A stretch of DNA of 64,000 nucleotides from Blastocatellia bacterium (GCA_035293105.1 DATDOV010000100.1:90857-154856); one strand, 5' to 3'; positions 3,551 through 19,731 are shown, numbered from the stretch's first letter. Translations and numbers: made by a program. Notes: a model not told the origin generated them from the letters alone.

Positions 3551-3565
3551 TCAAAGAATGTGTGA

Positions 3566-5437: not shown

Positions 5438-5438
5438 C

Positions 5439-6524
5439 ATGCGCTTAGCGATGAGTTCAAACAAGCCGAAGCTCACTAAGCTTGTCGCTGCCACTCTCTT
5501 TGGCGTTGCACTCGTTTTCTCGCTCTTCATAGCGTCAAACGGCGAGCACGGCGACAAAGAGAAAGAGCTGTACTGGCCCAGCCCGCCTGATCCGCCGCGA
5601 ATCAAGTACGTGCGCAGCATCGCGTCTCCGCGGGACCTTAAGCTCAAGCAGTCGTCGTTTCTCAAACGCGTGGTCAAGAAGATCATCGGGACCGAGGATC
5701 CCGAACCAGCCATGATGTCGCCATACGGCATCGTCACCGACAGCCGCCAGCGCATCATCGCAGTCGATTCAAAGGCGAGGATGATACACGTCTTCGATCC
5801 GCAGGAGAAGAAGTACGTCGCCATCAGGGCGCCGAAGAAAGAGATGTTCGTCTCGCTGGTCGGCGTAGCCGTCGACGGACAGGACAACATCTACGTCTCG
5901 GACTCGTACACCGGGAAGATATTCATCTTTGATCGAAACGGCAAACTCATTAAGAGGATTGGTTCCGAGGAAGGAAGCTTCAATCGGCCCACCGGCATTG
6001 CGATAGACAAGGCTTCGCGGCGCCTGTACGTCGTCGAAACCGTGAAAGGCGAGGTCGACGTGCTGGACCTTGACGGGATTGGATTATTCAAGTTCGGCAA
6101 GCGCGGAGAAGGCCAGGGCGAGTTCAATCACCCGACGCAAATATGCGTCAGCGGCGACAGCGTGTATGTCACCGACACGCTGAACGCTCGCATTCAAGTC
6201 TTCGACAAGGACGGACATTTTATTTCGGTGGTGGGGCGGCACGGCGATGGCATTGGGGATTTGGACAAACCCAAAGGCGTCGCGATCGATAGCCACGGGC
6301 ACATCTATGTCGTCGAAGGGCTTCGCGACCGGGTTCAGATATTCGATAAGGAAGGGAACCTTCTCCTCGTGTTCGGCGAGACGGGATCCGACAGAGGAGA
6401 GTTCTACTTGCCGACGGCCATCCACATAGACGCCGACGACAATATCTACATCTCCGATTCCAGCAATCGGAGAATCCAGGTCTTTAGGTACCTGAGAACG
6501 CCAGGGGCAGCGATAAGGGATTGA
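5439..6524 (+). CDS. secreted NHL-repeat protein, paralog of 531..1616
   Basis: Same length (361 aa) and same repeat pattern (IYVSDSYTGKIFIFD, LYVVETVKGEVDVLD, VYVTDTLNARIQVFD, IYVVEGLRDRVQIFD, IYISDSSNRRIQVFR). Signal anchor present. Confidence 0.75.
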   Translation: MRLAMSSNKPKLTKLVAATLFGVALVFSLFIASNGEHGDKEKELYWPSPPDPPRIKYVRSIASPRDLKLKQSSFLKRVVKKIIGTEDPEPAMMSPYGIVTDSRQRIIAVDSKARMIHVFDPQEKKYVAIRAPKKEMFVSLVGVAVDGQDNIYVSDSYTGKIFIFDRNGKLIKRIGSEEGSFNRPTGIAIDKASRRLYVVETVKGEVDVLDLDGIGLFKFGKRGEGQGEFNHPTQICVSGDSVYVTDTLNARIQVFDKDGHFISVVGRHGDGIGDLDKPKGVAIDSHGHIYVVEGLRDRVQIFDKEGNLLLVFGETGSDRGEFYLPTAIHIDADDNIYISDSSNRRIQVFRYLRTPGAAIRD

Positions 6525-6527
6525 TCT

Positions 6528-8423
6528 ATGAGAGCGAGGAGATTGCTGCTAATAGGTTTTTTCTGTTGCGTGCTCGGCGAAGTGGTCCATAGCCAGAGTT
6601 CCAAGGCGCAGTTGTTCAACTCAAAGCACGACTTCAGGGTCAACAGCAGCGCCGCCATTCGCTCCACAGCGGAAGGCCGAATCTGCGTTTTCTGCCACTC
6701 GCCCCACAACGGCAATCCGAGCCCCCAGATATGGAACCACAAGACGTCATCGGTTTCGAACTATCCCCTCTACGGCAGCACGACCATGCGGGCGACCACC
6801 ACCCAACCGACTAGTTCAGACTCGTCGAAATTGTGCCTGAGCTGTCACGACGGAACCGTGGCGCTGGGTGATACGGTGAACAACGGCCTCATTCCTTTCA
6901 TTCAGGGTTCGAACTTCACGCTTCCCGCGTCTTCGTCTTCGAACCTTCATAAAGGCGTCGGTTTTTCCGATGATCACCCGTTCGCTTTTCTGCCGGTCAC
7001 CGGCTCGGAGATAAGAAACCCGCCTGCGGGTGACGCGGTGAAGCTGGACCGATCGGGCAAGATGCAGTGCACGTCCTGTCACGATCCTCACGTTCAATCG
7101 AAGGACGCAACCGTCGGCAAGTTTCTCGTCGAATCGAATCTGAAATCGGCCCTTTGCACCACCTGTCATACTAAGACAGGCTGGACTGCGGCATCGCACA
7201 AACAGCCTGCAAGCGGTGCGAATGACAACAGGTACGGAACCTCGCAGGGCGCGCACACCGGTTACACGGGCGTGTCGAACAACGGCTGCGAAAGTTGTCA
7301 TCGCCCGCACTCGCCCGCGGTGGGACAGCGTCTGCTCAAGTTTGTGGAGGAAGACACTTGTTACAAGTGCCATAACGGTTCGGTCGCAGACACCAACAAG
7401 AACATACAATCGGAGTTCCAGACTAAGACGTACCGGCATCCGGTGTCGACCACGCCATCGGTGCACGACGCATCAGAAGGTCCGGCCTCGCTGACCTATA
7501 AACTGCCGGAGAGTTCGTCGGGAGCCGCGCGGCACGCCGAATGCGCGGACTGCCACGACCCTCACGCCGCGAATCCGCAAACCGGTTCGCCGCCGTCCGT
7601 CGCCGGCTACTTGCGTGAAGTCGCGGGCATTTCATCCTCGGGCACGGAAGCTTCGAGCGCGAATTACGAATACGAGGTGTGTTTCAAGTGTCACGCCGAC
7701 AGCGCGAACAAACCACAGCTTCTCGGCGGTGTGAGCTTTGGCCGGAATCCGCTGCGACAGACCGACGATAACAATCCCAGCCGCTTCAATTCCCGATTTG
7801 AGTTCAACTCGAGTGTCGCCTGGCATCCGGTGATAAACCCACGAGGCCTCTCAACAGGAACGAGCGGGTTCGTTCCGAGCCTCAGGTCAGCGCCGCTTGG
7901 GACCAACGGCCAGCCGCTGCCGGGAAGGTCGCTCTCGGCAAGCAGCTTCATATACTGCACCGACTGCCACAACAACAGCTCGGGAAGGAACCTCGGAACG
8001 GGAACGGGTCCCAGCGGCCCGCACGGCTCGAACATCATTCACCTGCTCGAGCGCAACTACTCATACAACACGCCTCCTGCAAATCCGGGCGGGACGATGG
8101 GACAGGTGACTTACTCGACCGCCGCTTATGCTCTGTGCAACAAGTGCCACGACGTCGACGGCAGCATCGTACAGAACCGAAGCTTCAAGGAGCACGACAA
8201 GCACATTCGTGGAGAAGGGGCCTCGTGCTCGGTATGTCACGACTCGCATGGGATCAACGGCGGCAACGCGACCAACAACAAGTTTCTGATCAATTTCGAT
8301 CTGAGCATAGTCGGCCCGGACAGCAGCGGCCGGCTCAGGTATGAATCGACTGGTTTTCGACGAGGCAGTTGTTACCTGACCTGCCACGGCGAGGAGCACA
8401 ACCCTAAGACATACAGTCAGTGA
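6528..8423 (+). CDS. large multihaem c-type cytochrome (~12 haems), secreted
   Basis: Signal peptide. Carries CVFCH, CLSCH, CTSCH, CTTCH, CESCH, CYKCH, CADCH, CFKCH, CTDCH, CNKCH and CSVCH, plus a C-terminal CX3CH variant (CYLTCH). Confidence 0.85.
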   Translation: MRARRLLLIGFFCCVLGEVVHSQSSKAQLFNSKHDFRVNSSAAIRSTAEGRICVFCHSPHNGNPSPQIWNHKTSSVSNYPLYGSTTMRATTTQPTSSDSSKLCLSCHDGTVALGDTVNNGLIPFIQGSNFTLPASSSSNLHKGVGFSDDHPFAFLPVTGSEIRNPPAGDAVKLDRSGKMQCTSCHDPHVQSKDATVGKFLVESNLKSALCTTCHTKTGWTAASHKQPASGANDNRYGTSQGAHTGYTGVSNNGCESCHRPHSPAVGQRLLKFVEEDTCYKCHNGSVADTNKNIQSEFQTKTYRHPVSTTPSVHDASEGPASLTYKLPESSSGAARHAECADCHDPHAANPQTGSPPSVAGYLREVAGISSSGTEASSANYEYEVCFKCHADSANKPQLLGGVSFGRNPLRQTDDNNPSRFNSRFEFNSSVAWHPVINPRGLSTGTSGFVPSLRSAPLGTNGQPLPGRSLSASSFIYCTDCHNNSSGRNLGTGTGPSGPHGSNIIHLLERNYSYNTPPANPGGTMGQVTYSTAAYALCNKCHDVDGSIVQNRSFKEHDKHIRGEGASCSVCHDSHGINGGNATNNKFLINFDLSIVGPDSSGRLRYESTGFRRGSCYLTCHGEEHNPKTYSQ

Positions 8424-8543
8424 AGTGAGCCGACTCCGGACGCGGAGAGGATCGGTGGGAGTCCGAATGAAGCCGACATGTTCGACAGGCCACACCAAGT
8501 CCCGAGACATCGCTCGGCCGAAGTTGATGGGCTAACCAGCGCA

Positions 8544-8618
8544 GCAATGAGCCACCTGCCCGCGCGTCACAAAGAGCCGTGATGGCTGTCATAGATTCCC
8601 TCAAAGCCAAATCTCTAG
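8544..8618. repeat. direct repeat, copy 1 (~76 bp) upstream of TPR gene
   Basis: gcaatgagcc..ccgcg.gtcac...agccgtgatggctgtcatagattccCtcaaagccaaatctctag. It is ~85% identical to 11344-11421, and the 45-bp core differs by a single base. Confidence 0.6.
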
Positions 8619-8680
8619 ACTCACTTCACGTTGGCAAAGCCAACAGGTGAGGGTGCATTCACAGTCATCGGAGGTAGCTA

Positions 8681-11161
8681 ATGAAGCGCGCGGTCTTGTA
8701 CGTCGTTGTCACGATGCTCATCTGCTTTTCGTTCAACGTCCCTGCGGTCGCGCAAGACACTCAGGGATCCTATTCCCTGCCGCCGGGCCATGTCATCCCC
8801 GGCCGGCCCTGGTCCAGCATTATCCCCGATCCCGACAGGTTCGACTGGACAGCTCGCGACGGCGGCCGGCCAGGTTACCGGTACCGCGGGATGCTGCCCA
8901 TGCAGCAGCGGTTCTACGACTACATCCAGCAGCAGCGACGTGCCAACATACCCCTGAGTTGGGCGGAGCAGGCGACGATCCGCTGGCTCATCTCGTCTCG
9001 GCGGTGGCCCGAAGCGCCCCGGCCCAACGCTTTCTGGTCGGCTTTCATGCGCTACCTCCGCGACCAACCGACCAGGAACCTCAACATCGCCCAGTCCATC
9101 ATGCTGGACCAGCTACGCTCGCGTGGCCTCGTGCCCGTCGACAGGGCTCCTGATCCCAATTTCGCGCGCATACGCGACTACCTCAACTCCGGTCCCTTTC
9201 ATTCGCGCAACTGGTTCGAGCGCGTTTTCGGCCGCGCCGAGCCTTGGATGGACAATCTCTACGCGGGTTGGGGGTATGACCTTCGGCCCAGCGCGCCGTC
9301 CGGCAATTCCTTCCCTGCGGGCGACCCTTTCAACGGCTTGAAGATCACTTATAACGTCAGCGGCGCGACGCTGAGCGCACCTGTCGACAGCGGGAGCTTC
9401 ACCATCAATCGCAGCTTCAAAGGAGTCCTGGGAACCGGCATGCTCGCCATTTCCGGCACGGTTCGCGTCGGCGGCTACGGCGCGGACGTCAGCCTCAGCG
9501 TCTGGGCGGGCGACAAGAAGGAAGAGAAGAAGTTCTACGTCGAGAACAAGGGCAGCAACGGCAACCCTCAGAACTTCAACCTCTCGGTGCCGATCCCCGG
9601 GGGGGCGCGCACCGGCGGCTTCGCCATTCGACTAGACGGCCGCTACTCGATGGGCGGCGGCCACCGCGGCTGCTACGTGACGGGTGAGTTCGGTCCCTCA
9701 CAAGCCCAGATCGACGCCGATCGCGCCGCTGCCGACGCCAAGTGGCGCCGGGAGGTCGAGGACACCCTCGCCCGCCTCGGTTATCAGAACACGCCCGAGG
9801 GCAAAGAGATCGAGGAGATGCGCAAAGCCCTGGCCGGCGGCGACGCGGCATGGAAGGCCTTCGTTGATGACCGTCTCGAACGGATGCGCGGGGACGACTC
9901 TCCCGAGATTGCGGAGTACAAGGAACTGGAGAACGCGATGACGGCCGGCGGCGCGGAGTGGGATAAATACGTCGCGGCTCATGGCACGTCCGGATCGACC
10001 GGTAGTCGCGGCAACGCCGTGGCGGCTTCGTCACTCATAAAACAGGGCCGCGACTACTACGAGAAGAACAAGTACAACGAAGCCGCCGATGCCTTCACGA
10101 AGGCGATCGAAGCCAATCCTGATTCGGCGGAAGCCTACACGGGCCGCGGCAACGCCAGGCGCAGCTTGCGCGACTATGCAGCCGCAAGCGCCGACTTCAA
10201 CAAGGCGATTGCACTCGATGCGCGAGCTTCCGAAGCCTATCGCGGTCGCAGCATGGTCAAGCGCGCGCAGAATGATTTCAGCGGCGCGCTGGCGGACGCG
10301 AATCGCGCGATCGATCTCGCGCCGAATTTCGATCGCGGTTATTTGACGCGGGGACTCGCGCGCGAAGGTCTGAAGGACCTCGCCGGCGCGCTCTCCGATT
10401 ACAACCGCGCGATCTCGCTTGATCCGAGCTACGCTATGTCCCACTACTATCGCGGCCGCGTGCTATTTGAGAGCAAGGACTACGCGAGGGCGATCCCGGA
10501 CTTCAACCGCGCGATCTCGCTCGACCCAAGTTACGCGATGTCCTATTTCCAGCGCGGACGCGCGCGATATGCGAGCAAGGACTACGATGGCGCGCTTGCA
10601 GACTACAACCGTTACATCGAGATGAACGCGACCGACAGCGCTGCGTTCAACAATCGCGGCCTGGTGAAGGAACGACTGGGAGACAAGAACGGGGCTATCG
10701 CTGATTACGAAAAAGCAGTCAGCATTAATCCTCAGAACGAAATCGCGAAGGGAAACCTCAGTCGTTTGCGAGCGACCTCCACAGCGACAAACCCATCCGG
10801 CTATCCCGATGTCGCGGGCGAGTGGGTTGAAGTATCGGGATATCCCTCGAACGGGAGCCCGATCACTATCACTCAATCCGGCGCTAACATTGTCGCAGTC
10901 GGTCGCTACACCATCGGGAATACTGCAATTGCATATAGAGTCGACGGGACCCTGACGCGTGACGGAGTGATCACTGGGCGGCTGGTCCACACCAAGGGCG
11001 TCTCGCCCGGTTCGCCGGGATTTGCCCAGGACCGGCGGATGACGCTCACGCCAGACGGCAACACCCTCAACATCTCGACAGCGTCGGTGGGTGGTGGAGG
11101 CGCGCATCAACTGAGTTGGCGGCGACGGGATCCAACGTCAACGAAGACAACCCCGCCTTAG
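8681..11161 (+). CDS. secreted TPR-repeat protein (826 aa) with unknown N- and C-terminal domains
   Basis: Signal peptide MKRAVLYVVVTMLICFSFNVPAVAQD. About 10 TPR units in aa ~450-700 (AEAYTGRGNARRSLRDYAAASADFNKAIALD..., YYRGRVLFESKDYARAIPDFNRAISLDP..., FNNRGLVKERLGDKNGAIADYEKAVSINP). Confidence 0.7.
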   Translation: MKRAVLYVVVTMLICFSFNVPAVAQDTQGSYSLPPGHVIPGRPWSSIIPDPDRFDWTARDGGRPGYRYRGMLPMQQRFYDYIQQQRRANIPLSWAEQATIRWLISSRRWPEAPRPNAFWSAFMRYLRDQPTRNLNIAQSIMLDQLRSRGLVPVDRAPDPNFARIRDYLNSGPFHSRNWFERVFGRAEPWMDNLYAGWGYDLRPSAPSGNSFPAGDPFNGLKITYNVSGATLSAPVDSGSFTINRSFKGVLGTGMLAISGTVRVGGYGADVSLSVWAGDKKEEKKFYVENKGSNGNPQNFNLSVPIPGGARTGGFAIRLDGRYSMGGGHRGCYVTGEFGPSQAQIDADRAAADAKWRREVEDTLARLGYQNTPEGKEIEEMRKALAGGDAAWKAFVDDRLERMRGDDSPEIAEYKELENAMTAGGAEWDKYVAAHGTSGSTGSRGNAVAASSLIKQGRDYYEKNKYNEAADAFTKAIEANPDSAEAYTGRGNARRSLRDYAAASADFNKAIALDARASEAYRGRSMVKRAQNDFSGALADANRAIDLAPNFDRGYLTRGLAREGLKDLAGALSDYNRAISLDPSYAMSHYYRGRVLFESKDYARAIPDFNRAISLDPSYAMSYFQRGRARYASKDYDGALADYNRYIEMNATDSAAFNNRGLVKERLGDKNGAIADYEKAVSINPQNEIAKGNLSRLRATSTATNPSGYPDVAGEWVEVSGYPSNGSPITITQSGANIVAVGRYTIGNTAIAYRVDGTLTRDGVITGRLVHTKGVSPGSPGFAQDRRMTLTPDGNTLNISTASVGGGGAHQLSWRRRDPTSTKTTPP

Positions 11162-11343
11162 AACGCGATCAACATTATTGGCGAGGATTGCGTGGAACAT
11201 GATGGAGCGCGCCAAAGCCGTGACTTTCACCGGGAAGTAGCCGTCAGGCTACTTGCGCGGATTCATACTATGGGCTTGGTGCGTCGGGGCAATTCGAGCA
11301 TCTGGAATTCAGTTACTAACCCTGGATCTCGCTTGCCGGCGTG

Positions 11344-11421
11344 GCAATGAGCACCCACGCGCCCGCGAGTCACTGACAGCCGTGATGGCTGTCATAGATT
11401 CCATCAAAGCCAAATCTCTAG
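11344..11421. repeat. direct repeat, copy 2 (~78 bp) downstream of TPR gene
   Basis: Matches 8544-8618. It lies in the convergent intergenic region between the TPR gene and the STAND NTPase gene. Confidence 0.6.
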
Positions 11422-11504
11422 CACGACCGAGGCTGAGCTGCTAGTTCTTTCGGGCACGTGACTGGCAGGGGAGCAGCCGAAAGCGGACTGACGAACCGTC
11501 AGTC

Positions 11505-13481
11505 TCAACGTTGAGAGTCTACAGGTCGCACCGGTCCGCCCGTCACGATCTCCCTTATCTTTCTCACTTCCGCTTCAGCCTTATTCAACTCGTCGTAGGA
11601 AGATTTGCGGAGGGCGAGGTAACTATTGCAATCCACGGGCAATCGATACGCGCTCTTCAGACGATTTATTTCGCCTTCGGCCCTCAATCCTTGTTGCTCT
11701 ATTTGTCTCGACAGTTGTCTCAATCTGTCCACCTCAGCGACCATTCTCATTTCATCCCGTCCATTGGTTGCATCGGCTATTGCCTCGTCTCTTTCTTGCT
11801 CAAGCGCCGCCGCCTTGGTAGTCAGCGCACTCACCTTGCCGTCAAGTTCTTTCCTGGCCTTCTCAGCCTCCTGGTACGCCGCCAGCGCTGCCTCCTCCGC
11901 AAACAATGCGTCCGCACGCCCCATTTCCGCAAACGCCCTCGCATCGTCGGCTTTCTTCACGAGGTCGTCCCGCACCGCCTTCTCGTACGCGGCCTGACCC
12001 CTCGCCTCGATTTCTTGACGTGCCGAGTCACGATCAGCAAGCGCATCTCTAACTTCGGTTCTAGCGATAGCCGCCTCAGTCCTAGTTTGAATCACCAGGA
12101 CGGCCACTGAAGCTATTACGAGAGCGGCCATTAGACAGATACCAACCAGCCAGTACAACCGTCGTCTCCTGACTCGGTCCGCTTCCTCAAGTCTACGGCG
12201 CTCGATCTCCGCCAGTCGTTCCACCTTCTTTTGACTTATCCATGGAACGAGAAACTCACTGACGATGTCATAGAAGTAGGTATTGTACCGTCGTTCCCGA
12301 CGGACAAGTTTGGTGTCCTCCACCAAGGCATTCAAAGCAGCTTTCAACCGGCCTTCAGGGATGTTCTCGCCGTCAGGCGCCCGACCGATCAGGTCTTCTT
12401 CGGAAACGACGTTGCGTGTACCGGCGGCGGTTACGAGGCGGCTTAGCAAAGCTACAGCCGGGTCTCGGAGATCATCTGCACGACGCGAGCTGTCGCTGGC
12501 TAACCGGGCACCGGAAAGCAACGCCATGGCCGGACTCGGCGGATCACCTGCAAGCTGGTTAAGAGCGTCCGATAGATAGTCCTCCAGAAGACCCTGAACG
12601 CCTCTCTGTTTGAACAAGCCTCCGGGGTCGGGGGACTCCCACAGCCTTCGGCAGGCAATCTGAACCTCGGACAAGCTGAGCGCCCCGGATTCCGTTCGCT
12701 CATCAATGGCGGCTGCCAAATCCTGAGCCAGTTCCGGTGAGAGTTCCGCCCTAAAGCTCCCTGGGAACCTCTCGAAAGGTCCACGGATAATGTTATCCAA
12801 TGCCTTCGTACGCAGCGTCGTTAGCCGCAGGTATTGATCCGGCAATTCGGGGCAGAGCACGAATAACTTCGTGAGCTTCGCCAGGTAGTCTTCCCTGAAT
12901 GTGAACAGGAGCTTCACCCCAAGCCGCGGGTCGCGCATCAACTCGACCACAGCCTGGAGAATCGCCTGCTGCGCGGCTTGAGCTTCTTTCAAAGCCTCGC
13001 CTCGCGGGGCTTCCTCGAACAAGGTGACGAACTCTTCAAACTGGTCGAAGATCAACAACGGTTGCCGGTCGGCCGCTGCGGCCCTGAGCTTCTCCATGAA
13101 AGCGCTAATAGAGAGCACGATGCGCGGGCGCTCCTCGTCATCGGCGAAGACCGACGGCAGGAACGGTGCCTTGCCGTCGCCGGGAATCGAGATGCGCTCG
13201 ACGACGATCTCCTCATTGCGGGGAGGCTGAACGCGTAGTCTTTCCGGCGTAAAGCCCTCGGTGATCGTCGCTGGGATCAATCCCGCGTTGATCAGAGAAG
13301 ACTTGCCCGAGCCCGATTCGCCGTAGAACAACACGCCGCGATAGATCGTGACGTAGCGCAGCAGCTTCCTAGTTTCTTCCTCTCGCGCGAAGAAGATCGC
13401 TTGATCGGCATAGCGGAAGGAGTCGATTCCGCGGTAGGGCGACTCGGGCAGCGAAAGCGGCGCGGTTGCAGAGCTTGTCAT
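11505..13481 (-). CDS. nSTAND/NACHT-like P-loop NTPase with C-terminal transmembrane helix and long coiled coil
   Basis: The N-terminus PYRGIDSFRYADQAIFFAREEE...VLFYGESGSGKSSLINAGLIP (Walker A) and Walker-B-like LLIFDQFEEFVTLFEE are the pattern of bacterial STAND NTPases usually fused to WD40/TPR. Here aa ~447-470 form a TM helix (LYWLVGICLMAALVIASVAVLVI) followed by ~190 aa of heptad-rich coiled coil. The start overlaps the stop of the upstream SIR2 gene (ATGA). Confidence 0.75.
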   Translation of the reverse strand: MTSSATAPLSLPESPYRGIDSFRYADQAIFFAREEETRKLLRYVTIYRGVLFYGESGSGKSSLINAGLIPATITEGFTPERLRVQPPRNEEIVVERISIPGDGKAPFLPSVFADDEERPRIVLSISAFMEKLRAAAADRQPLLIFDQFEEFVTLFEEAPRGEALKEAQAAQQAILQAVVELMRDPRLGVKLLFTFREDYLAKLTKLFVLCPELPDQYLRLTTLRTKALDNIIRGPFERFPGSFRAELSPELAQDLAAAIDERTESGALSLSEVQIACRRLWESPDPGGLFKQRGVQGLLEDYLSDALNQLAGDPPSPAMALLSGARLASDSSRRADDLRDPAVALLSRLVTAAGTRNVVSEEDLIGRAPDGENIPEGRLKAALNALVEDTKLVRRERRYNTYFYDIVSEFLVPWISQKKVERLAEIERRRLEEADRVRRRRLYWLVGICLMAALVIASVAVLVIQTRTEAAIARTEVRDALADRDSARQEIEARGQAAYEKAVRDDLVKKADDARAFAEMGRADALFAEEAALAAYQEAEKARKELDGKVSALTTKAAALEQERDEAIADATNGRDEMRMVAEVDRLRQLSRQIEQQGLRAEGEINRLKSAYRLPVDCNSYLALRKSSYDELNKAEAEVRKIREIVTGGPVRPVDSQR

Positions 13482-14359
13482 AGCGGCATCTCCTCGCCCG
13501 TAACGGCACGGTACAGTTTCGGAAGGAAAGTCCAGACGTCCTGCGCGATGAACTTGACGTACTGCTCCTGGTCGGCCAATACCTTAACTAACAAGAGGTC
13601 GGGATGGGGATCCACGGAATACGTGTTCGGGCGGTTCGCTTTATCGATCCGCCAGCGCAGGGTCTTGAACAGCAGCCGGAGGTTGTAATCCATGAGGCTG
13701 TAACCCACGAACAACGTCGGCCAGCGCTTGAAGTTGTAGCGGAAGGTCTCCGGCACCGGGTGGTAGGGGTCCTTGTCGCTCATACGCAAGACGAACTGAA
13801 TGTAGTCTTCATCGGTGACGACGATGGATTCGGGTTTCTGGATATCGCCATGAATCTTGAAGACGAAAGGCCGCGTGCTGGTCGCGTCAGTGTAGTCGGC
13901 CGTCACGGTGTACTCTTCCTTGCTGTAGACGCCGATGTATGGGTCCTTTGCCGCGTCCCACAGCGCTCTTTCATAGAGTTGGTCGTAGTTGGTGGTGATG
14001 ACGAGCGGAAAGTTCAATCGCGCGAGCGCGCGAAGCACGGGCGAAGGCTTCTTCCCGACCTGCACAGCACTGACCATCTCTTCGACCAACTCGCGCCGCG
14101 AGCGTTTCGTCTCGTAGTACAGCGACACTCTTTGGAGATTGCCCGTGCTCTCGCGGGGGAACTGCTCGGCAAAGCCGCTCTTGGCGGCGAGCCGCTCGGA
14201 GAGCGCGCGGCCGAGCGGCGGGCGCTCGGATTCAGGGTAGCTGTACTTCGAACCTTCGGGCGGCGGGTAATGCACACCAGCTCCCATGAAGAGAATACAC
14301 TGACCGTTGTTCACCTTCTCGGCAATCGCAGCAATCGTCGCCTCGTCGGCATGCTCCAT
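13478..14359 (-). CDS. SIR2-like (SIR2_2 / DSR-ThsA-type) NADase-domain protein
   Basis: Motifs CILFMGAGV, NFPLVITTNYDQLYERA, FKIHGDIQKPESIVVTDEDY and LFVGYSLMDYNLRLLF are characteristic of the SIR2_2 family. The start was chosen at MEHADE (ATG 14359), with RBS AAGGAG 8 nt upstream. The longer ORF (to 14626) would overlap the vWA gene. Confidence 0.8.
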   Translation of the reverse strand: MEHADEATIAAIAEKVNNGQCILFMGAGVHYPPPEGSKYSYPESERPPLGRALSERLAAKSGFAEQFPRESTGNLQRVSLYYETKRSRRELVEEMVSAVQVGKKPSPVLRALARLNFPLVITTNYDQLYERALWDAAKDPYIGVYSKEEYTVTADYTDATSTRPFVFKIHGDIQKPESIVVTDEDYIQFVLRMSDKDPYHPVPETFRYNFKRWPTLFVGYSLMDYNLRLLFKTLRWRIDKANRPNTYSVDPHPDLLLVKVLADQEQYVKFIAQDVWTFLPKLYRAVTGEEMPL

Positions 14360-14538
14360 CGTAGTCCGCTCCTTCGTGACGGTCAGGTGACTTGCAATGA
14401 GATTTATGATTGCGCGGCGGATATCGACAGGGGTTACATCCGCGTCGTGGCTAATCCTACTACAAAAAGCAGCGTGACTGATAGTAGGGAGGAGGTGGCC
14501 GTCAAAAGGGACTCTGGGAATCGAGAGGTCCGGAGGAG

Positions 14539-16230
14539 TCAACGCTTCGCCCGCAGGACAACCACTTTGTCTTCGCCTTCCTTGACCTCGAAGTCTATGC
14601 GGTCGTACTCGCCCTTCTGCCTCCAACCGGTGACGCTGTATCGCCCGGGAGTAAAGGGGTACTTTTCGTTCGAGTTCCTGAAGATTCTCTCATTGCCGTT
14701 GGCTGTGCTGGCGAAGCACCGATCGGGTTTATCCGGCGTGCCATCGGCCTTCTGATAGACGAAGGTCACGTGGCCGACCGGAACCGTGATGTCGAAGTGC
14801 TGCTGCTTCTGGTCGGTCACCACGATCCCGGTCTTGACGTACGGTGTCAGAGCGTTGGGCAAACGCACATCGTAGACGCCGGGAAGCACAGTCTCGCCCA
14901 GCGTCATGTGCACGCGGTACCTCTTCTCGCCGTTTTGCCATAGCTCGTAGTTCTCGCGAAACCATATTCCCGAGCCCGACGCCACCATCTTCACCGTCAC
15001 CCGAACCGTGTGGGCCATGCCGAAGACGATTTCTTTGCGTTCTCCGGCGGCGATTGTTGCCGTCGTCGAGAGATCATTCGCAGCGTTAGGCCGCGCGCGA
15101 AACTCGTAGGCGCCTTCATCGACGAAGACCTCATCAAAATAGCGGAAACTGAAGACCTCTTTGCCGTCTTGAAAAGCATGGACCAGCGAGCCGCGCTGAT
15201 CCTCGCCCTGGTCGGTGAATCGCGCTCTCACGGTTGGCGGCGTGGGGACCTCGACCTTGACCACAGTCGCGCCGGTATCCGCGACTTGGACGCTCTTGGT
15301 CACGGGCCTGTACATATTGCCGTTAGCCGTCGGAACCCCGGCCGTCAGCGTGTACTGGCCGGCCTCGACGCGGCCGGCGCTGCTGCTTGTAACTTTGTAA
15401 AGGTCCCGGCCCTCGCGCGAGAGAACGCCGACGACTCTTATGCGGCTCCCCGCTGCGTCGACGCCCTGTAACCAGAATCCCGCGAGGGCTGCTTGCGCTT
15501 GCTTATGGATCTTCCCCATTTCATCAGCCAGCGTTAAAGCCGACTGGGCATCGTGATACTGGGTGCCTGCTGCGTTGGAGATGCACTCGAGGGTCTGTCG
15601 CTCTTTTTCGCCGAGTCCGAAGCCGACGACGTGAACCTTGATCTTCACGTTTTTGTTTTTCCACTCGCGGACCAGCGCGCACGGGTCGGCTTCGCAAGAC
15701 TCGATGCCGTCGCTGATGAGGATAATCTCGCCGGGCCGGTCGCCGAAATCTTTGAGGGCCTCAGCGAGGCTGTACGTTATCGGCGTTCTGCCAATCGCGT
15801 TTATTCGCTTGATCGACTCCTTGAACTGAGCGACGACTTTTTCGGGAGGGCCGAAGGGAATTAGAAGCTCAGAATCCGCGCAATCCTCTTTTCTCCGGTG
15901 GCCGTAGACTCGAAGCGCGAGGTCGTAACCGGGAAAATCCTTGGCGACGAAATCCTGGAGTACCTGTTTGGCCGCATCGATCCGGCGCGACTTGTCGGGC
16001 AAACGCGCCATCATCGAGCCCGACGCGTCGAAGATGATATAGATGCCGGCCGCTTTGTTTTCCTGCTGGGCAGCTTGAGCCGCAGAGTCGGGTGAGGGGG
16101 CATCATCGCTGCGCTTCTCAACTACCGGTGTAACCACCGCCGGGTTGTTGCCCGCGTCGCCTGACGGCGGAGCGGTGGAGCAACCGGCGATGGCGCATAC
16201 GACCGCGATGTAAATCAGTTCAATCTTCAT
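14539..16230 (-). CDS. von Willebrand factor A (vWA) domain lipoprotein with C-terminal beta-rich domains
   Basis: Lipoprotein signal MKIELIYIAVVCAIAGCS. vWA MIDAS-type start IYIIFDASGSM...LISDGIESCEADPC...VHVVGFGL. Confidence 0.7.
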   Translation of the reverse strand: MKIELIYIAVVCAIAGCSTAPPSGDAGNNPAVVTPVVEKRSDDAPSPDSAAQAAQQENKAAGIYIIFDASGSMMARLPDKSRRIDAAKQVLQDFVAKDFPGYDLALRVYGHRRKEDCADSELLIPFGPPEKVVAQFKESIKRINAIGRTPITYSLAEALKDFGDRPGEIILISDGIESCEADPCALVREWKNKNVKIKVHVVGFGLGEKERQTLECISNAAGTQYHDAQSALTLADEMGKIHKQAQAALAGFWLQGVDAAGSRIRVVGVLSREGRDLYKVTSSSAGRVEAGQYTLTAGVPTANGNMYRPVTKSVQVADTGATVVKVEVPTPPTVRARFTDQGEDQRGSLVHAFQDGKEVFSFRYFDEVFVDEGAYEFRARPNAANDLSTTATIAAGERKEIVFGMAHTVRVTVKMVASGSGIWFRENYELWQNGEKRYRVHMTLGETVLPGVYDVRLPNALTPYVKTGIVVTDQKQQHFDITVPVGHVTFVYQKADGTPDKPDRCFASTANGNERIFRNSNEKYPFTPGRYSVTGWRQKGEYDRIDFEVKEGEDKVVVLRAKR

Positions 16231-16355
16231 CGGACCCTCTGTTCGCTTGTCTTCCTTCGCAGTGGTTCGTCTCCGAATCAGTAGGCGCGACAACTTGGTG
16301 GATAAAAGCCAGTGTGAATAAACCGTAGTCGCGGCGCCGGCAAGCCCGCCGGGAA

Positions 16356-16958
16356 TCAGAATGACACCTGGATGCGTATCTCTATCTTGACGCTGCCGGA
16401 GCCATGCTTCCCGTAGTCATCGGCGGCCTTGCGGTTCATCTCAACGCCCAGCTTGATCTTGTAGTTGGCCCCGACCTTCCACTCGCCCAGATCGGCTTTG
16501 GCCCTATTGAGAAACTTCCGGGCCTTGTCGTTCTTGTCTCTCTCGTCTCTGGCGGGCGGGTCCTGCAGGCTGATCGAATCGAGCTGCTTTTCCAGGTCGT
16601 CGAGTTTCTTCTTAAGCACGTCTGCCTTAGCTTTCAAGCTCCGCATGCAGCCGACGAAGGTCTCAGCCACCAATCGATATGCCTTGGCCCAGTCGTCCCA
16701 CTCTTCTTTCGGCGCGCCGTCCGCCGGACGATTCGCCTTCGCAAACTGTTGGAAGGTGTCAAAATTCAACGAGCACTGTTCAAGCTGGTTCAGCGTCTGA
16801 TTATAAGCGGCCACCGTCGCATCGTAGGTTTCTTCGACCGACTGTTCCCGGCCGAACGCAGACGCGGGAAACGCGAGCGCGACGACAATCGCCGCGAGCA
16901 CTACGACCGCCGTATAGCGAGCGCCCCTTCTGTCACCGTCGGTCAACACGCTTCTCAT
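16356..16958 (-). CDS. small secreted coiled-coil protein (hypothetical)
   Basis: Signal peptide MRSVL...AFPASAFG. EEWDDWAKAYRLVAETFVGC motif shared with 18797..19285. Confidence 0.45.
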   Translation of the reverse strand: MRSVLTDGDRRGARYTAVVVLAAIVVALAFPASAFGREQSVEETYDATVAAYNQTLNQLEQCSLNFDTFQQFAKANRPADGAPKEEWDDWAKAYRLVAETFVGCMRSLKAKADVLKKKLDDLEKQLDSISLQDPPARDERDKNDKARKFLNRAKADLGEWKVGANYKIKLGVEMNRKAADDYGKHGSGSVKIEIRIQVSF

Positions 16959-16988
16959 GATGCCCTCCTTCCATCCAATCATCCGTGG

Positions 16989-17690
16989 TCAGTCTTTGTT
17001 TCCTCGCTTCAGCCCTTCCAACGCCTTTTTTACATCCGCGCCTTCCGTGATTGTCACATCTGACGGGATTGCGAACTTATCGGCGGGAATCGAGGCGTCC
17101 GCGTCGAATCTCGTAGCCGTACTCGTGATCTCCATCCCGGCCATCTTCGTTTGCACCTTCAAGGTCACAGAGTTCCAGACCCAGCTCTTGCTGCCGAGGT
17201 TTTTCACCTCCCAGACGTCGCACATCTTGCCGGCTACCTCTTCAGAGCCGGTCTTCACTCCTCCCATGTCTCTCATCATCTTTTCGCCAAGCTCGGCCAG
17301 GTCTTTCGTACCGGCACGGTCGGTGATCTGTTTGAACAAGGGGTTCTGTGTTTTCGCGCCGGTCCTTTTGTCGAGGTCGATCGCGTAAATCCACTCGCCG
17401 TCCAACAACGTCAGCCTGTTGGATCTCTGAGTCATTCCTGCGACGGTTAATTCGCTCCTGGTGTACTTTGCTTCGCGCATTCCCCATCGGTCGAAGTACA
17501 CGGTTTCGGCGCCCTTCTGCGCGCCGCTCATCGTGTACTCAACGATGCCGGACTCTATCTGATATCGCTTAAAGCCGGCGTCCTTCATTCCCTCGCTCTT
17601 CATCTCGCCGCTGCTTGTGCCACTCGGTTTACTGCATGCGCTTGCGAGCGACACTAGCAACAGAAGGGCAAACAGGCTCCACGTTTTCAT
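16989..17690 (-). CDS. hypothetical lipoprotein
   Basis: MKTWSLFALLLLVSLASACS lipobox. ATG at 17690. Confidence 0.5.
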   Translation of the reverse strand: MKTWSLFALLLLVSLASACSKPSGTSSGEMKSEGMKDAGFKRYQIESGIVEYTMSGAQKGAETVYFDRWGMREAKYTRSELTVAGMTQRSNRLTLLDGEWIYAIDLDKRTGAKTQNPLFKQITDRAGTKDLAELGEKMMRDMGGVKTGSEEVAGKMCDVWEVKNLGSKSWVWNSVTLKVQTKMAGMEITSTATRFDADASIPADKFAIPSDVTITEGADVKKALEGLKRGNKD

Positions 17691-17730
17691 GAAAACTCTC
17701 CTCCGTGACTGGTTTGAATGAACCGGTGGA

Positions 17731-18768
17731 TCAAGGCTTCTGCGGCTGTCCTCTGAACCGCACCAGGTGGTTTCTGGCAAGGCCGCTGCCCGAAGTTATT
17801 TCCGCGACTGAGTACTTCTCTTCAACAGTGGTTACCCTGAGCGTGCCGACCTTTCGATCCGGCGTGCCGAGCGTCTTTCCGGTCTCAGGATCCACGAGGG
17901 GCGGCTGCTGATGATAGACGTCAAACTCCATTCCAGGGCGAATGCCTTGTTCCGATCCGGCGTTGATGTAGACAAGCCCCTCGCGCACGTCGATGACGCG
18001 TCCCGACCACGGGACCGCCTTCATTCCCGAGACGATCGCCGCCACGGCGTTTTCGATTGCCTCGCGCGAGGCGTGGCCGAGCGGCGTGTTCTTGAAGCCC
18101 GACACGCTGAACTCCTGATCGCGGCGTGTAAGCTCCGCGCTGGCGCCCGTCATCGACGCCTTCCCCTCCGCGCGTTGTGAGAAGATCACTTCGCTGGTTA
18201 CCGCGTCGACGAGCCGGATGTCGAGGGCCACCATCGCCGTCACCCGGTCCGATTTCGCCTTCAGTATCTTTATCGGTTTGAAAGTGCCGCCGATCGATGT
18301 CTGGTTGTAGGCGAACTCCGTTATGTCACCGGTGATGAGGGTCTGCGCCCCGATGACGCGGCCACTGGCGGCTGCCGTTTCCTTGTTGACCCGCCCCGAA
18401 GCGCCGAAGTCCTGCTCGCCGGTTACGTCCTTGATGGATGCGCGCTCGACGACGATGAACCGGCCCGTCTTCACCAACTCGGTCGTGAGCATCTCGGTGA
18501 GCCCAAGCGCAAATTCAGCCGGGGGGGGAAGCGCGATGGTCGTGCTGCGAGAATCACGGTCCTCTTTGACATACTCCCTGAAGGCGGTGCCCGAGATGCT
18601 CATTACCGCGATGCGCAGCTTCGGGCCGGTCCAGGGCGGCTGTACTTCCTTCTGCCCGAATGTCGCCGGCGGAAGAAACGCCAGTAGACAAAGGGTCGCC
18701 GTGGCACAGGCCATAAGCTGAAAGTTGCCGGTACGGTCGATTCCTGACCTGTCGAGCATTCGATTCAC
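17731..18768 (-). CDS. CsgG-like (curli-secretion-channel family) lipoprotein with extra C-terminal domain
   Basis: LTEMLTTELVKTGRFIVVERASIKDV...ASGRVIGAQTLITGDITEF...VALDIRLVDAVTSEVIFS matches the CsgG-family core pattern. Signal peptide present. Confidence 0.55.
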   Translation of the reverse strand: MNRMLDRSGIDRTGNFQLMACATATLCLLAFLPPATFGQKEVQPPWTGPKLRIAVMSISGTAFREYVKEDRDSRSTTIALPPPAEFALGLTEMLTTELVKTGRFIVVERASIKDVTGEQDFGASGRVNKETAAASGRVIGAQTLITGDITEFAYNQTSIGGTFKPIKILKAKSDRVTAMVALDIRLVDAVTSEVIFSQRAEGKASMTGASAELTRRDQEFSVSGFKNTPLGHASREAIENAVAAIVSGMKAVPWSGRVIDVREGLVYINAGSEQGIRPGMEFDVYHQQPPLVDPETGKTLGTPDRKVGTLRVTTVEEKYSVAEITSGSGLARNHLVRFRGQPQKP

Positions 18769-18796
18769 TCTTTCCTCCTAAGCGGCTCTCGGACGC

Positions 18797-19285
18797 TCAC
18801 TTCTTCTTCCTGGCTCGAAGCCGGTCGAGCCTGGCTCTAAGCTGCTTTATTATCGGAGGCTGCTGGTCAATTCGCTTCTGCTGGTCGAGAAGCTTTTGTC
18901 TCATTCTCGCCATCGCCTCGTCCTCTCTTTCACCCACCGCGATGTTGGGAAGCCTCGACAGGAGTTCGGCGACTCTCTTCTTCAAAGCGCCGATTGCGCT
19001 TTCCAGATTGGCGACACACTTCTCAGCTTCGTCAACCTTCTGCTTGTATTTCTCCCACTCTTCATCCGGCGCATCCTCAGCAGGCACCGCGATCAATTGA
19101 ATGCTCGCGTCGCAGAGTTCCACACCGTAACGAAAGCCGAGTATTTGCTGCTCGAGCCTTTCAATCTCCTTGGCAATATCGCCCTGAGCGGCGAAAGAGC
19201 GAGGCGGGAGCACTAGTACACACGTCAGCGCAAGTCCGACAATCAGGGTCTCAAGCGTTCTCGTTCTCATCATTCTCTCCTTCAT
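18797..19285 (-). CDS. small secreted coiled-coil protein, paralog of 16356..16958
   Basis: Signal peptide. DEEWEKYKQKVDEAEKC... aligns with EEWDDWAKAYRLVAETFVGC of the other gene. Confidence 0.45.
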   Translation of the reverse strand: MKERMMRTRTLETLIVGLALTCVLVLPPRSFAAQGDIAKEIERLEQQILGFRYGVELCDASIQLIAVPAEDAPDEEWEKYKQKVDEAEKCVANLESAIGALKKRVAELLSRLPNIAVGEREDEAMARMRQKLLDQQKRIDQQPPIIKQLRARLDRLRARKKK

Positions 19286-19323
19286 TGAAATCTGCGAATA
19301 GCAGGTTGTTCAATGCTTCGATC

Positions 19324-19731
19324 TCATTCTTCCTCCTGGATGATGATCTTGGGCGTTACCAAGAGGACCAGGCATTTGCTTCTGGTTTCAGAGTTTCCCT
19401 TGTTGAAAAAGATCCTCTGGATATAAGGAATCTTGTCGCAGACTATCTCGACATCGTGCTTGCCTCCCAGAGGCTTTCCGGTGCCGGGATGCCGGACATT
19501 GATGGCTCGGAACAGAAACACCTTGTTGTGCTCGGTTATGGTATAGCCGTTCACGCGCGCGTCGTTTGTCAGGTCGACGGTCTTTCCCTTCTCCTCTCTC
19601 TGCGCAGCCGGTCCGGCGACGTGGGCAGCGGCCGTCCAGGTAGCCACAGAGAAGACCATCAAAGACGCGATTGCGATTAAACAACTCGATGCTCGAAAAA
19701 CGGCGTTTGCCGTCTTGCTACTATTTTTCAT
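19324..19731 (-). CDS. small exported protein with secretin-like C-terminal motif
   Basis: Signal anchor. C-terminal DKIPYIQRIFFNKGNSETRSKCLVLLVTPKII resembles the secretin C-domain signature (PvLgdiPvlGwLFrs....tELlifiTPrIv). Confidence 0.45.
   Translation of the reverse strand: MKNSSKTANAVFRASSCLIAIASLMVFSVATWTAAAHVAGPAAQREEKGKTVDLTNDARVNGYTITEHNKVFLFRAINVRHPGTGKPLGGKHDVEIVCDKIPYIQRIFFNKGNSETRSKCLVLLVTPKIIIQEEE

Follow-up and report, generated by a model that had tools for sequence, protein, structure and literature searches.

In the fused SIR2-STAND protein EfAvs5, NADase activity is activated by STAND-driven filamentation (PMC11897194), and KomC, the SIR2 protein of Kongming, acts in a filamentous complex (PMC13454610). 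Every bacterial STAND sensor characterised so far (Avs1-21, bNACHT and Avs5) detects phage proteins in the cytoplasm (PMC12803255, PMC11897194), while nSTAND1 NTPases have been proposed for conflict systems of 'multicellular' bacteria (PMC8195603). Here, we analysed a 64,000-nt stretch of DNA from a Blastocatellia bacterium (GCA_035293105.1, DATDOV010000100.1:90857-154856; hereafter the window), in which a first-pass annotation had proposed a split SIR2-effector/STAND-NTPase operon with an antiphage role. Reading the window sequence placed both annotated ORFs (293 and 658 aa) on the minus strand, with the following features:

13478-14359, minus strand: SIR2_2-family protein of 293 aa, a predicted NAD+-consuming effector (Pfam SIR2_2, 4e-26)
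14369-14374, minus strand: AAGGAG ribosome-binding site of the SIR2 gene (sequence reading)
14360-14538, minus strand: intergenic stretch of 179 nt from the VWA lipoprotein gene to the SIR2 gene, a possible promoter region (G+C 0.547)
14273-14293, minus strand: LFMGAGV, SIR2 residues 23-29, the Rossmann-type glycine-rich NAD-binding loop (sequence reading)
13964-13999, minus strand: ITTNYDQLYERA, SIR2 residues 121-132, holding the conserved Asn124 (sequence reading)
13844-13861, minus strand: FKIHGD, SIR2 residues 167-172, holding the conserved His170 (sequence reading)
13478-13481, minus strand: ATGA overlap of the SIR2 stop TGA and the nSTAND1 start ATG, translational coupling (sequence reading)
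11505-13481, minus strand: nSTAND1 NTPase ORF of 658 aa (Pfam nSTAND1, 1.3e-31)
12162-13481, minus strand: nSTAND1 NTPase module, residues 1-440, with P-loop domain, helical domain and winged helix
13296-13322, minus strand: Walker A GESGSGKSS, NTPase residues 54-62 (sequence reading)
13032-13058, minus strand: Walker B LLIFDQFEE, NTPase residues 142-150 (sequence reading)
12090-12170, minus strand: RRRR stop-transfer motif and single transmembrane (TM) helix, NTPase residues 438-464, hydrophobic core 446-464 (hydropathy, AF2, charge bias)
11508-12089, minus strand: predicted extracytoplasmic tail, NTPase residues 465-658, all-helical, Ala/Arg/Glu-rich, coiled-coil-like (AF2)
11488-11506, strand not assigned: hairpin GACTGACG-AAC-CGTCAGTC, overlapping the nSTAND1 stop codon (sequence reading)

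The SIR2 gene starts with the ATG at 14359, and the AAGGAG noted in the first-pass annotation is indeed present 9 nt 5' of it. The longest ORF extends as far as a TTG at 14626, but nearly all homologues measure 293-300 aa, in line with the start that gives 293 aa. The annotated ATGA junction was likewise seen, and an identical 4-nt overlap is called in 19 related loci. The region upstream of the pair had been described as an AT-richer promoter of its own; its G+C is in fact slightly lower than that of the window (0.547 versus 0.594), but the promoter itself was not borne out, as the scan of 14360-14538 returned no sigma-70-type consensus match on the coding (minus) strand, and an independent promoter is unproven because the upstream VWA gene shares the strand of the pair. 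The hairpin downstream is possibly a terminator, albeit one devoid of a T-tract, and was not called in the terminator scan.

Every SIR2_2 motif quoted in the annotation was found in the 293-aa protein, including VVTDEDY (residues 180-186) and LFVGYSLMDYNLRLLF (residues 216-231), and the protein matches the SIR2_2 profile (PF13289) with 92.2 bits against a cut-off of 24.5. The catalytic motifs are intact: C21-G28 of the NAD loop (including G26, A27 and G28), T122, T123, N124, Y125 and D126, and K168, H170 and G171 are all invariant in 20 homologues. The best PDB sequence-profile matches are KomC (4.6e-19), ThsA and DSR2, and PADLOC profiles of ThsA (9e-22, restricted to the SIR2 part, positions 59-218 of 478) and Dsr2 (5e-8) are matched as well. 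With the AF2 model (pLDDT 86.6) as query, the best 50 Foldseek structures are all KomC, ThsA or DSR2 (E 2e-14 to 4e-11), with no deacetylase sirtuin among them. Judged by sequence and predicted fold, the protein thus belongs to the KomC/ThsA/DSR2 class of anti-phage NADases, in agreement with the annotated likeness to Thoeris and DSR effectors and with Kongming as an additional relative; it is therefore a predicted NADase.

KomC (PDB 8zsf, 9v0g; PMC13454610) is the closest solved SIR2 protein by sequence as well as by structure (Foldseek 2e-14, TM score ~0.7), and both are small stand-alone SIR2 proteins working with a partner, although their sequence identity is only ~22-24%. The partner of KomC is KomB, with activation by dITP made via KomA and a phage kinase, whereas the partner here is a membrane STAND NTPase; Kongming was rejected since the locus lacks KomA (adenosine deaminase) and KomB (non-canonical NTP pyrophosphatase) and the neighbours are nSTAND1, VWA and TPR genes. 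ThsA and DSR2 have the SIR2_2 NADase domain class in common with the window protein. However, ThsA binds its signal through a SLOG or Macro domain and acts together with the TIR protein ThsB, while the window SIR2 ends at residue 293 and is devoid of any sensor domain. Thoeris was dismissed on these grounds, the ThsA match being limited to the SIR2 part, and a scan of ten neighbouring genes (window 2441-11161 and 14539-19680) turned up no TIR gene. DSR2, a tail-tube sensor, is a single fused polypeptide of ~1000 aa as against 293 aa here, and was likewise ruled out by the window protein's NCBIfam Dsr2 score of 30.8 bits against a cut-off of 1400. SIR2-HerA (Nezha) was rejected too, as the partner is an nSTAND1 protein with no HerA match.

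The annotated STAND-type P-loop NTPase is a bona fide nSTAND1 member by its Pfam score (PF20703, 111 bits against a cut-off of 27.1, residues 15-293). It shows the P-loop, helical and winged-helix arrangement with intact Walker motifs, and its N-terminal motif PYRGIDSFRY (residues 15-24) is in place; across 40 NTPase homologues, G57, G59, K60, S61 and S62 of Walker A are invariant, as are L143 and F145-E150 of Walker B. There is almost no N-terminal extension for effector docking, the first conserved motif beginning at residue 15. As in other nSTAND1 conflict NTPases (Kaur et al. 2021, PMC8195603), an unchanging NTPase is joined by sensor and effector parts that vary, but the described systems have fused bDLD3/EAD10-type adaptors or are EACC1 systems, whereas the SIR2 lies here in trans. 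The text of Kaur et al. 2021 makes no mention of a SIR2-in-trans, single-pass TM architecture, and Kaur et al. 2020 makes no mention of SIR2.

Avs5 (AVAST type V; EfAvs5, PDB 9jap; PMC11897194) similarly couples a SIR2 NADase to a STAND-type NTPase switch and, by analogy, activation of the NADase through oligomerisation would be the expected common logic. In Avs5, however, SIR2 is fused to the N-terminus of STAND and the sensor is cytosolic and SAMD9-like, while here the two are separate, translationally coupled polypeptides and a TM helix is predicted to place the variable C-terminus outside the cell. Neither a PADLOC AVAST match nor a PDB profile match relates the NTPase to Avs5, and Avs5 identity was rejected given two ORFs and an nSTAND1-family NTPase without detectable sequence similarity to it.

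The two genes form a real, widely conserved cassette of soil bacteria. nSTAND1 lies directly downstream of SIR2 on the same strand in 78 of 80 SIR2-anchored loci from at least nine phyla (the exceptions comprise the end of a contig, an IS element lodged between the two genes, and a fusion of a caspase to SIR2), and SIR2 lies upstream in 29 of 30 NTPase-anchored loci at ≥40% identity. The reverse association was also recovered in a further close set (3/3) and for distant NTPases (24/35). Pairwise distances of the two proteins correlate with r = 0.86, which none of 2000 Mantel permutations reached, so the pairing is both obligate and co-evolving, and the split operon proposed by the first-pass annotation, including its gene order, stands. 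None of the sequence-level outcomes that it had named as speaking against its proposal (missing profile matches, genes that never co-occur, a conserved housekeeping module) was encountered: the cassette has a patchy distribution, can occur in several copies and is not part of any conserved housekeeping operon. The only apparent SIR2-STAND fusion (P0117) was discarded as a frameshift artefact, its SIR2 homology being lost after residue 224.

Directly after the winged helix, the NTPase carries a single TM helix (residues 446-464), an assignment based on hydropathy (Kyte-Doolittle 19-residue mean of 2.96), charge bias and a continuous AF2 helix at residues 411-470. Of 65 complete SIR2-linked partners, 63 have an equivalent helix, as do 99 of the 120 top NTPase homologues; some partners lack it, notably pentapeptide-repeat and TIR-bearing forms. 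K+R counts average 6.2 before the helix versus 3.1 after it and are higher before it in 61 of 64 proteins and lower in none. Because the TM helix is combined with a uniform positive-inside bias, the hypervariable tail should lie outside the cytoplasm, and we model the nSTAND1 partner as a single-pass membrane protein with its NTPase in the cytoplasm and its tail predicted to be extracytoplasmic. This helix between NTPase and C-terminal region was absent from the first-pass annotation, and with it the protein would be expected to survey the envelope or exterior rather than to sense phage proteins in the cytosol.

The tails evolve very differently from the module that carries them: all 1431 pairs of NTPase modules are alignable versus 156 of 1431 pairs of tails, and partner lengths span 539 to 1730 aa. 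Downstream of the TM helix, relatives carry WD40, PASTA, FGE-sulfatase, PG-binding (PG_binding_1), TonB-C (TonB_C) or GH25 domains. The annotation had expected a non-canonical sensor region in place of TPR/WD40, which fits the window tail, in which no Pfam domain was found, but not the family, since 37 of 65 relatives retain WD40 after the TM helix. To our knowledge, WD40 propellers seldom face outward. The window tail has no homologue in the 80 loci or among the tails of 54 close relatives, gives only weak coiled-coil matches against the PDB, and lacks the superstructure-forming repeats or lectin-type domain by which nSTAND1 C-terminal sensors are recognised. Its AF2 helices (478-573, 581-612 and 618-647) belong to a low-confidence model (pLDDT ~45-75). 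We regard it as a candidate lineage-specific sensor.

Partial precedents exist for such a topology. Some bacterial NACHT/NLR-like STANDs carry C-terminal TM segments (Kibby et al., bioRxiv 10.1101/2022.07.19.500537), and DGR-diversified CLec sensors indicate that variable sensor domains may be periplasmic (Doré et al., bioRxiv 10.1101/2023.09.22.558884). As far as the available passages of these preprints go, however, their TM-bearing proteins fall into other NTPase clades, chiefly NACHT, and have their effectors fused, none is paired with a separate SIR2, and no experimental test of a TM-bearing STAND is reported. Zorya (ZorAB; PMC11890865) offers a conceptual parallel as an inner-membrane-anchored defence with proposed envelope detection relayed to cytoplasmic effectors, but its proteins are unrelated, comprising a MotAB-like stator and nuclease or helicase effectors with no STAND or SIR2 core.

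Nothing in the genomic surroundings demonstrates the antiphage role originally proposed. The pair is flanked in the window by envelope or periplasmic proteins, including VWA and TPR proteins, the nearest relative's cassette sits among housekeeping genes, and no sign of a defence island appeared in either locus or across the 124 genes that flank related loci. Among the 124 flanking proteins, 13 PADLOC families, mostly domain-level, match sparsely, with neither a recurrent third gene nor conserved neighbours. No close relatives were found on phages, plasmids or viral contigs, and no PADLOC system matches the two-gene cassette. The literature searched contains no description of a SIR2 plus TM nSTAND1 cassette; that it is undescribed rests on this search and cannot be proved.

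On balance, we lean towards the locus being a self-contained two-gene conflict (immune-type) module, in which a STAND receptor facing outward would set off the depletion of NAD+. The tail, a helical coiled-coil-like rod of ~190 residues, would perceive a foreign or damage-related ligand at the envelope, and the juxtamembrane helix would pass the signal to the NTPase, which would exchange or hydrolyse nucleotide and oligomerise within the membrane plane. Cytoplasmic SIR2 subunits physically associated with it would thereby be brought together as active oligomers that hydrolyse NAD+, with growth arrest or cell death ensuing. The trigger may be phage adsorption or injection, bacteriocins, contact-dependent attack or predators. 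Favouring such a module are the domain identities, the effector class of the SIR2, the pairing, the topology, post-TM modules that are typically extracytoplasmic (PASTA, PG_binding_1, TonB_C, FGE-sulfatase and GH25), the sensor-like evolution of the tails, the paralogous cassettes of some genomes, the caspase-SIR2 fusion, the TIR-bearing partner and the Avs5/KomC precedent. Against it count the missing defence-island context, a SIR2 whose conservation across phyla (53% identity as the pairwise mean) is unusually high for an immune effector, the near absence of an NTPase docking extension, TM-less partners, the low-confidence tail model and the outward WD40.

Alternatively, the protein might be a conventional cytosolic sensor that is merely membrane-tethered, with the outside tail only anchoring, spacing or oligomerising it and NAD+ depletion proceeding as in Avs5; the trigger (for instance a phage protein or membrane depolarisation) would then be sensed by the NTPase, winged helix, juxtamembrane region or TM helix. 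Coiled-coil tails like that of the window are classic oligomerisation elements and not ligand-binding domains, TM-less family members exist, and the characterised bacterial STAND sensors all recognise cytosolic phage proteins (PMC12803255, PMC11897194). Nevertheless, a mere anchor should neither exchange WD40, PASTA, FGE-sulfatase, PG-binding, TonB-C and coiled-coil modules nor evolve so much more rapidly than the remaining protein, and the highly conserved cytoplasmic part (100% of pairs alignable) is unlike a surface diversifying against phage ligands, so that we consider this rather unlikely. The envelope and housekeeping neighbours, the highly conserved SIR2 sequence, a local base composition with no sign of recent horizontal transfer, and PASTA, PG-binding and TonB-C tails resembling the sensors of cell-wall signalling kinases would all suit a TM STAND receptor that reports the state of the wall or periplasm and controls a non-lethal SIR2 acting, for instance, as a protein deacylase, ADP-ribosyltransferase or moderate modulator of NAD+ turnover. 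Such envelope signalling appears decidedly unlikely given the sparse distribution (~148 matches in 185,579 species genomes in a pattern-limited search), several divergent paralogous cassettes in some genomes, the lack of conserved neighbours, similarity that does not follow taxonomy (the window SIR2 shares 64% identity with an actinomycete copy versus only 51-57% with other Blastocatellia copies), and nearest relatives in sequence and fold that are all NADase effectors. Moreover, the caspase-SIR2 fusion and the TIR-bearing partner tie the family to the domain vocabulary of cell death and conflict.

The same outward-facing variable domains could instead recognise bacterial, predator or non-kin surface molecules, toxins or secretion apparatus, with altruistic death or dormancy following, much as in the NLR-based heterokaryon incompatibility of fungi. 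Soil lineages that lead complex lifestyles, a myxobacterium (L066) among them, have expanded sets of paralogues, and neither the 124 flanking proteins nor the searches of phages, plasmids and viral contigs revealed a phage-linked context. For nSTAND1 (PMC8195603) and, in the passages available, for the DGR-diversified, partly periplasmic sensors (bioRxiv 10.1101/2023.09.22.558884), a place in conflict systems of 'multicellular' bacteria has been put forward. Yet every SIR2 NADase partner characterised to date is anti-phage, and a self/non-self or anti-competitor receptor of this kind, which we hold to be very unlikely, overlaps in mechanism with the conflict module that we favour and differs from it only in the trigger.

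We tentatively raise the further possibility that the family represents a large, so far uncharacterised class of bacterial NLR-like receptors, which would monitor the periplasm, cell wall or cell surface via rapidly diversifying tails and signal across the membrane through a STAND switch to a separate SIR2 NADase. If so, bacterial NLR-like immunity would extend to extracytoplasmic surveillance, unlike that of the characterised STANDs, and would place a receptor-kinase or TLR-like 'outside-in' logic on an NLR-type engine, so that the cell could react to phage adsorption or injection, bacteriocins or predators ahead of any foreign expression in the cytoplasm. It would also raise the mechanistic question of how a STAND oligomerises and signals while tethered to the membrane. 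The family would, moreover, form a natural 'split' counterpart of Avs5 and help in studying how STAND assemblies activate SIR2 enzymes. Large catalogues likely missed it because their counts were restricted to fused effectors and sensors no shorter than 400 aa (PMC12803255), and because it occurs mostly in uncultured soil phyla and apparently outside defence islands.

The ~76-bp direct repeat noted next to the operon is real: its copies at 8546-8618 and 11346-11421 are ~90% identical, occur exactly twice and have a chance expectation of none. The segment that they bracket is the neighbouring TPR gene, not the SIR2-nSTAND1 operon.

The SIR2 and NTPase reading frames picked out in the first-pass annotation are both found on the minus strand where it had placed them:

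13478-14359, minus strand: SIR2 gene, 293 aa, ATG start 9 nt after an AAGGAG
11505-13481, minus strand: nSTAND1 NTPase gene, 658 aa, Pfam PF20703 at 1.3e-31

Pfam SIR2_2 matches the 293-aa protein at 4e-26 (92 bits against a cut-off of 24.5), so that, together with the nSTAND1 match of its partner, the identities proposed from motifs are borne out by profiles; all five of the SIR2 motifs quoted in that annotation are present. The ATGA overlap likewise holds, the TGA stop of the SIR2 gene sharing bases with the ATG of the 658-aa ORF. A longer, TTG-initiated SIR2 reading exists, which would run into the preceding VWA gene; because nearly all SIR2 homologues are 293-300 aa long, the short form is favoured. 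In the NTPase, Walker A (GESGSGKSS, residues 54-62) and Walker B (LLIFDQFEE, residues 142-150) are canonical, and only ~14 residues precede the first conserved motif. The region upstream of the SIR2 gene, described as an AT-richer promoter, is barely AT-richer (G+C 0.547 vs 0.594), and a promoter scan found no sigma-70-like site there on the coding strand; a terminator scan downstream of the cassette found no canonical terminator.

The SIR2-nSTAND1 pairing is real in both directions. With a 20-sequence SIR2 alignment as the query, 80 loci were drawn from species-representative genomes of Acidobacteriota, Actinomycetota (mostly Solirubrobacterales), Gemmatimonadota, Verrucomicrobiota, Chloroflexota, Myxococcota, Nitrospirota, Planctomycetota, Bacteroidota and Rokubacteria, and an nSTAND1 gene follows the SIR2 gene on the same strand in 78 of them. 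One cultured carrier is Corallococcus carmarthensis CA043D, whose cassette is on NZ_RAWE01000010.1 (L066, range 86110-98958). One of the two exceptions is a contig that stops 262 nt past the SIR2 gene, and the other (L074) carries a caspase-SIR2 fusion without the NTPase. Starting instead from the NTPase, SIR2 lies directly upstream on 29 of 30 metagenome contigs at identities of at least 40% and on 3/3 at 33-40%, while 24 of 35 remote nSTAND1 relatives (24-33% identity) are likewise preceded by a SIR2, one that has diverged correspondingly. Pairwise distances of the SIR2 proteins and the NTPase modules (residues 1-440) are tightly correlated over 71 pairs (r = 0.86; 0/2000 Mantel permutations as high). 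At cluster level, the two proteins have 2170 and 1803 matches at E <= 0.001, and databases contain an identical pair of proteins from a Blastocatellia (Acidobacteriota) metagenome-assembled genome. Large negative 'gaps' between the two genes are spurious and come from placing starts by longest ORF in high-GC DNA.

Several individual loci depart from this arrangement. At L074 (4900-6858, plus strand), the 653-aa product joins a caspase (Peptidase_C14, 9e-16) to a cassette-family SIR2 (8e-21), no nSTAND1 gene lies downstream, and the fusion may be an alternative deployment of the effector, independent of the NTPase. In an actinomycetotal locus counted within the 78 (L012; 7127-8839, minus strand), a DDE-family transposase of an IS element sits between SIR2 and nSTAND1, an insertion that probably uncouples or inactivates the cassette. 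The sole apparent SIR2-nSTAND1 fusion in the database, a 1028-aa protein with both Pfam domains (P0117), was considered as a Rosetta stone and rejected as a frameshift artefact, because its SIR2 homology stops at residue 224, short of the invariant WPTLFVGYSL block, and is followed by out-of-frame-looking sequence.

The SIR2 protein resembles the effectors of known anti-phage systems. In the 20-sequence alignment, neither the NAD loop nor Asn124 or His170 varies, and the C-terminal segment (residues 245-293) is conserved. The nearest solved proteins by profile are KomC of Kongming (4.6e-19), SeThsA, BcThsA and DSR2. With the AF2 model (pLDDT 86.6) as the query, the top 50 Foldseek matches are all anti-phage SIR2 NADases, with no deacetylase sirtuin among them. 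PADLOC matches (ThsA, PDC-S25, LmuA, Dsr1/2 and pAgo-associated SIR2) span the SIR2 domain only.

The most interesting aspect of the cassette is its predicted membrane topology. The first-pass annotation had read the pair as a SIR2 effector and a STAND sensor in separate polypeptides, and while the domains and their pairing support that interpretation, the transmembrane (TM) helix and the outward orientation had been missed. The NTPase module ends in a winged helix, to which an arginine-rich stretch (RRRR, residues 438-441) and then a strongly hydrophobic segment of 19-21 residues (444/446-464; Kyte-Doolittle mean 2.96) are directly joined, and AlphaFold renders residues 411-470 as a single continuous helix. 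An equivalent TM segment is found in 99 of the 120 closest NTPase homologues, in 63 of 65 complete SIR2-linked partners and in 27/35 of the remote nSTAND1 branch; exactly one is present in 62 of the 65 partner tails. Lys and Arg, counted over 15 residues, average 6.2 before the segment vs 3.1 after it, with the larger number before it in 61 of 64 proteins and the smaller in none. An NTPase requires cytoplasmic ATP, and the SIR2 protein has no signal peptide; the region beyond the TM helix is therefore predicted to be extracytoplasmic, on the far side of the cytoplasmic membrane. The domains that follow the TM segment in relatives, namely PASTA, PG_binding_1, TonB_C, FGE-sulfatase and GH25 lysozyme with TPR, are typical extracytoplasmic modules, which fits this predicted placement. 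WD40 propellers make up 37 of the 65 tails. A minority of relatives without a TM helix have pentapeptide-repeat tails, one of them with a C-terminal TIR as well: at L082 (2337-6119, plus strand), a cassette-family SIR2 is paired with this TM-less nSTAND1 protein, and the cassette thus holds two NAD-related domains, SIR2 and TIR.

The tail of the window's own NTPase (residues 465-658) has no Pfam match. Searched by phmmer against the locus ORFs and the 120 homologues, it returned weak coiled-coil noise only, and a PDB profile search gave only tropomyosin-like matches (E > 0.004). Ala, Glu, Arg, Lys, Gln, Leu and Asp make up 70% of its residues, and the AF2 model is all-helical with modest confidence (helices at 478-573, 581-612 and 618-647). 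Its closest relatives, mostly Acidobacteriota, have tails of 100-220 aa with a like composition and little alignable similarity: among them, BLASTP picks up only 156 of 1431 tail pairs vs 1431/1431 module pairs. The cytoplasmic engine has therefore stayed constant, whereas the outside tail evolves fast, a pattern typical of recognition surfaces on which diversifying pressure acts.

How such a cassette would work can be inferred from STAND signalling generally and from EfAvs5 in particular, in which filamentation driven by the NOD stabilises the active SIR2 dimer (PMC11897194); KomBC also acts as a filamentous complex (PMC13454610). A ligand would engage the extracytoplasmic tail, the long juxtamembrane and TM helix would relay the signal, and the NTPase would be licensed for nucleotide-dependent oligomerisation, arranging the SIR2 subunits into an active NADase and leading to NAD+ collapse. 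Translational coupling and tight co-evolution suggest that SIR2 and NTPase form a stoichiometric complex. Phage adsorption or injection, Tol/Ton-parasitising bacteriocins, cell-wall damage and contact with a competitor or predator would all be compatible triggers.

The cassette is predicted to be a conflict system of the STAND plus SIR2 NADase kind. Its workings would be like those of Avs5, but it does not belong to that family, being split rather than fused, membrane-anchored and equipped with an NTPase from a different family; nor does it have the architecture that defines Thoeris, Kongming, DSR or SIR2-HerA. The name nSTAND1 comes from Kaur et al. 2021, who gave it in connection with EACC1 systems and systems with fused death-like adaptors (PMC8195603); a SIR2-nSTAND1 pair is described neither in that text nor in Kaur et al. 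2020, which makes no mention of SIR2. In the relevant passages, Kibby et al. list bacterial NACHT proteins whose C-termini bear TM segments as one category (bioRxiv 10.1101/2022.07.19.500537) and Doré et al. predict that some NACHT targets have DGR-diversified sensor domains in the periplasm (bioRxiv 10.1101/2023.09.22.558884); the idea of an outward-facing STAND sensor had therefore already been raised, and these passages report no experimental test of a TM-bearing member. A 2026 STAND catalogue of 589 clades is, by its stated criteria, classed by fused effectors or DefenseFinder proximity and restricted to sensors of at least 400 aa (PMC12803255), so a split-effector, short-tail system outside defence islands would probably escape it.

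The cassette lies outside any recognisable defence island. At the 80 loci, the closest ORF on either flank was searched with PADLOC and Pfam: neither a convincing enrichment nor a conserved third gene emerged, no Pfam family occurs in more than 6 of the 124 flanking proteins, and PADLOC matches are sparse and mostly domain-level. Neighbours in the window are a SurA-like chaperone, an NHL propeller, a multihaem cytochrome, a secreted TPR protein, a VWA lipoprotein and a CsgG-like protein; those of the nearest relative's cassette are a peptidase, coproporphyrinogen oxidase and a phosphatase. Searches of plasmid and phage sequences by tblastn, and of IMG/VR contigs, yielded no close copies, only distant SIR2 proteins (<= ~35% identity), and local composition is unremarkable, with no sign of recent transfer. 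A housekeeping role is argued against by the cassette's rarity (~148 matches in 185,579 species genomes in a pattern-limited search), by the two to four divergent copies in some genomes and by SIR2 similarity out of step with taxonomy, the window's SIR2 being 64% identical to an actinomycete copy vs 51-57% to other Blastocatellia copies. This paralogue expansion is reminiscent, by analogy, of NLR repertoires. Multi-copy genomes include Solirubrobacteraceae SMAG_U3187 (L013, L025, L029, L030) and Blastocatellia SMAG_U1603 (L021, L068); the copies with a complete NTPase (L013, L021, L068) differ in tail length.

The genes that immediately precede SIR2 on its own strand form an envelope-gene run (14539-18768, minus strand) that may be co-transcribed with the pair:

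17731-18768, minus strand: CsgG-like lipoprotein
16989-17780 and 16356-16982, minus strand: two ORFs without Pfam matches
14539-16293, minus strand: VWA-domain lipoprotein, 584 aa

At the nearest relative's locus (L081), a VWA gene lies ~2.4 kb upstream; VWA is not recurrent in the other loci. Elsewhere in the window, a 623-aa ORF without a Pfam match (3566-5437, plus strand) lies between the SurA-like and NHL-propeller genes, upstream of the multihaem cytochrome gene.

The direct repeat reported beside the operon is real (8546-8618 and 11346-11421, plus strand; about 67-78 nt, copies ~90% identical), but it flanks the neighbouring TPR gene rather than the operon, one copy lying ~60 nt upstream of the ATG of this secreted protein's gene and the other downstream of the gene. 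Its core, AGCCGTGATGGCTGTCATAGATTCC, is the same in both copies and occurs exactly twice in the window, where none is expected by chance. The repeat contains a 7-bp hairpin (GACAGCC-GTGAT-GGCTGTC), the downstream copy has a sigma-70-like match (CTGACA-16-TAGATT, 11373-11400), and Rfam gave no match at E <= 0.1 over 8000-15000; possible readings are a promoter or operator that was duplicated and a small-RNA element. Inside the TPR-protein gene, a tandem 102-nt duplication (10373-10576, plus strand; 75% identity) fits TPR repeat units and is probably ordinary.
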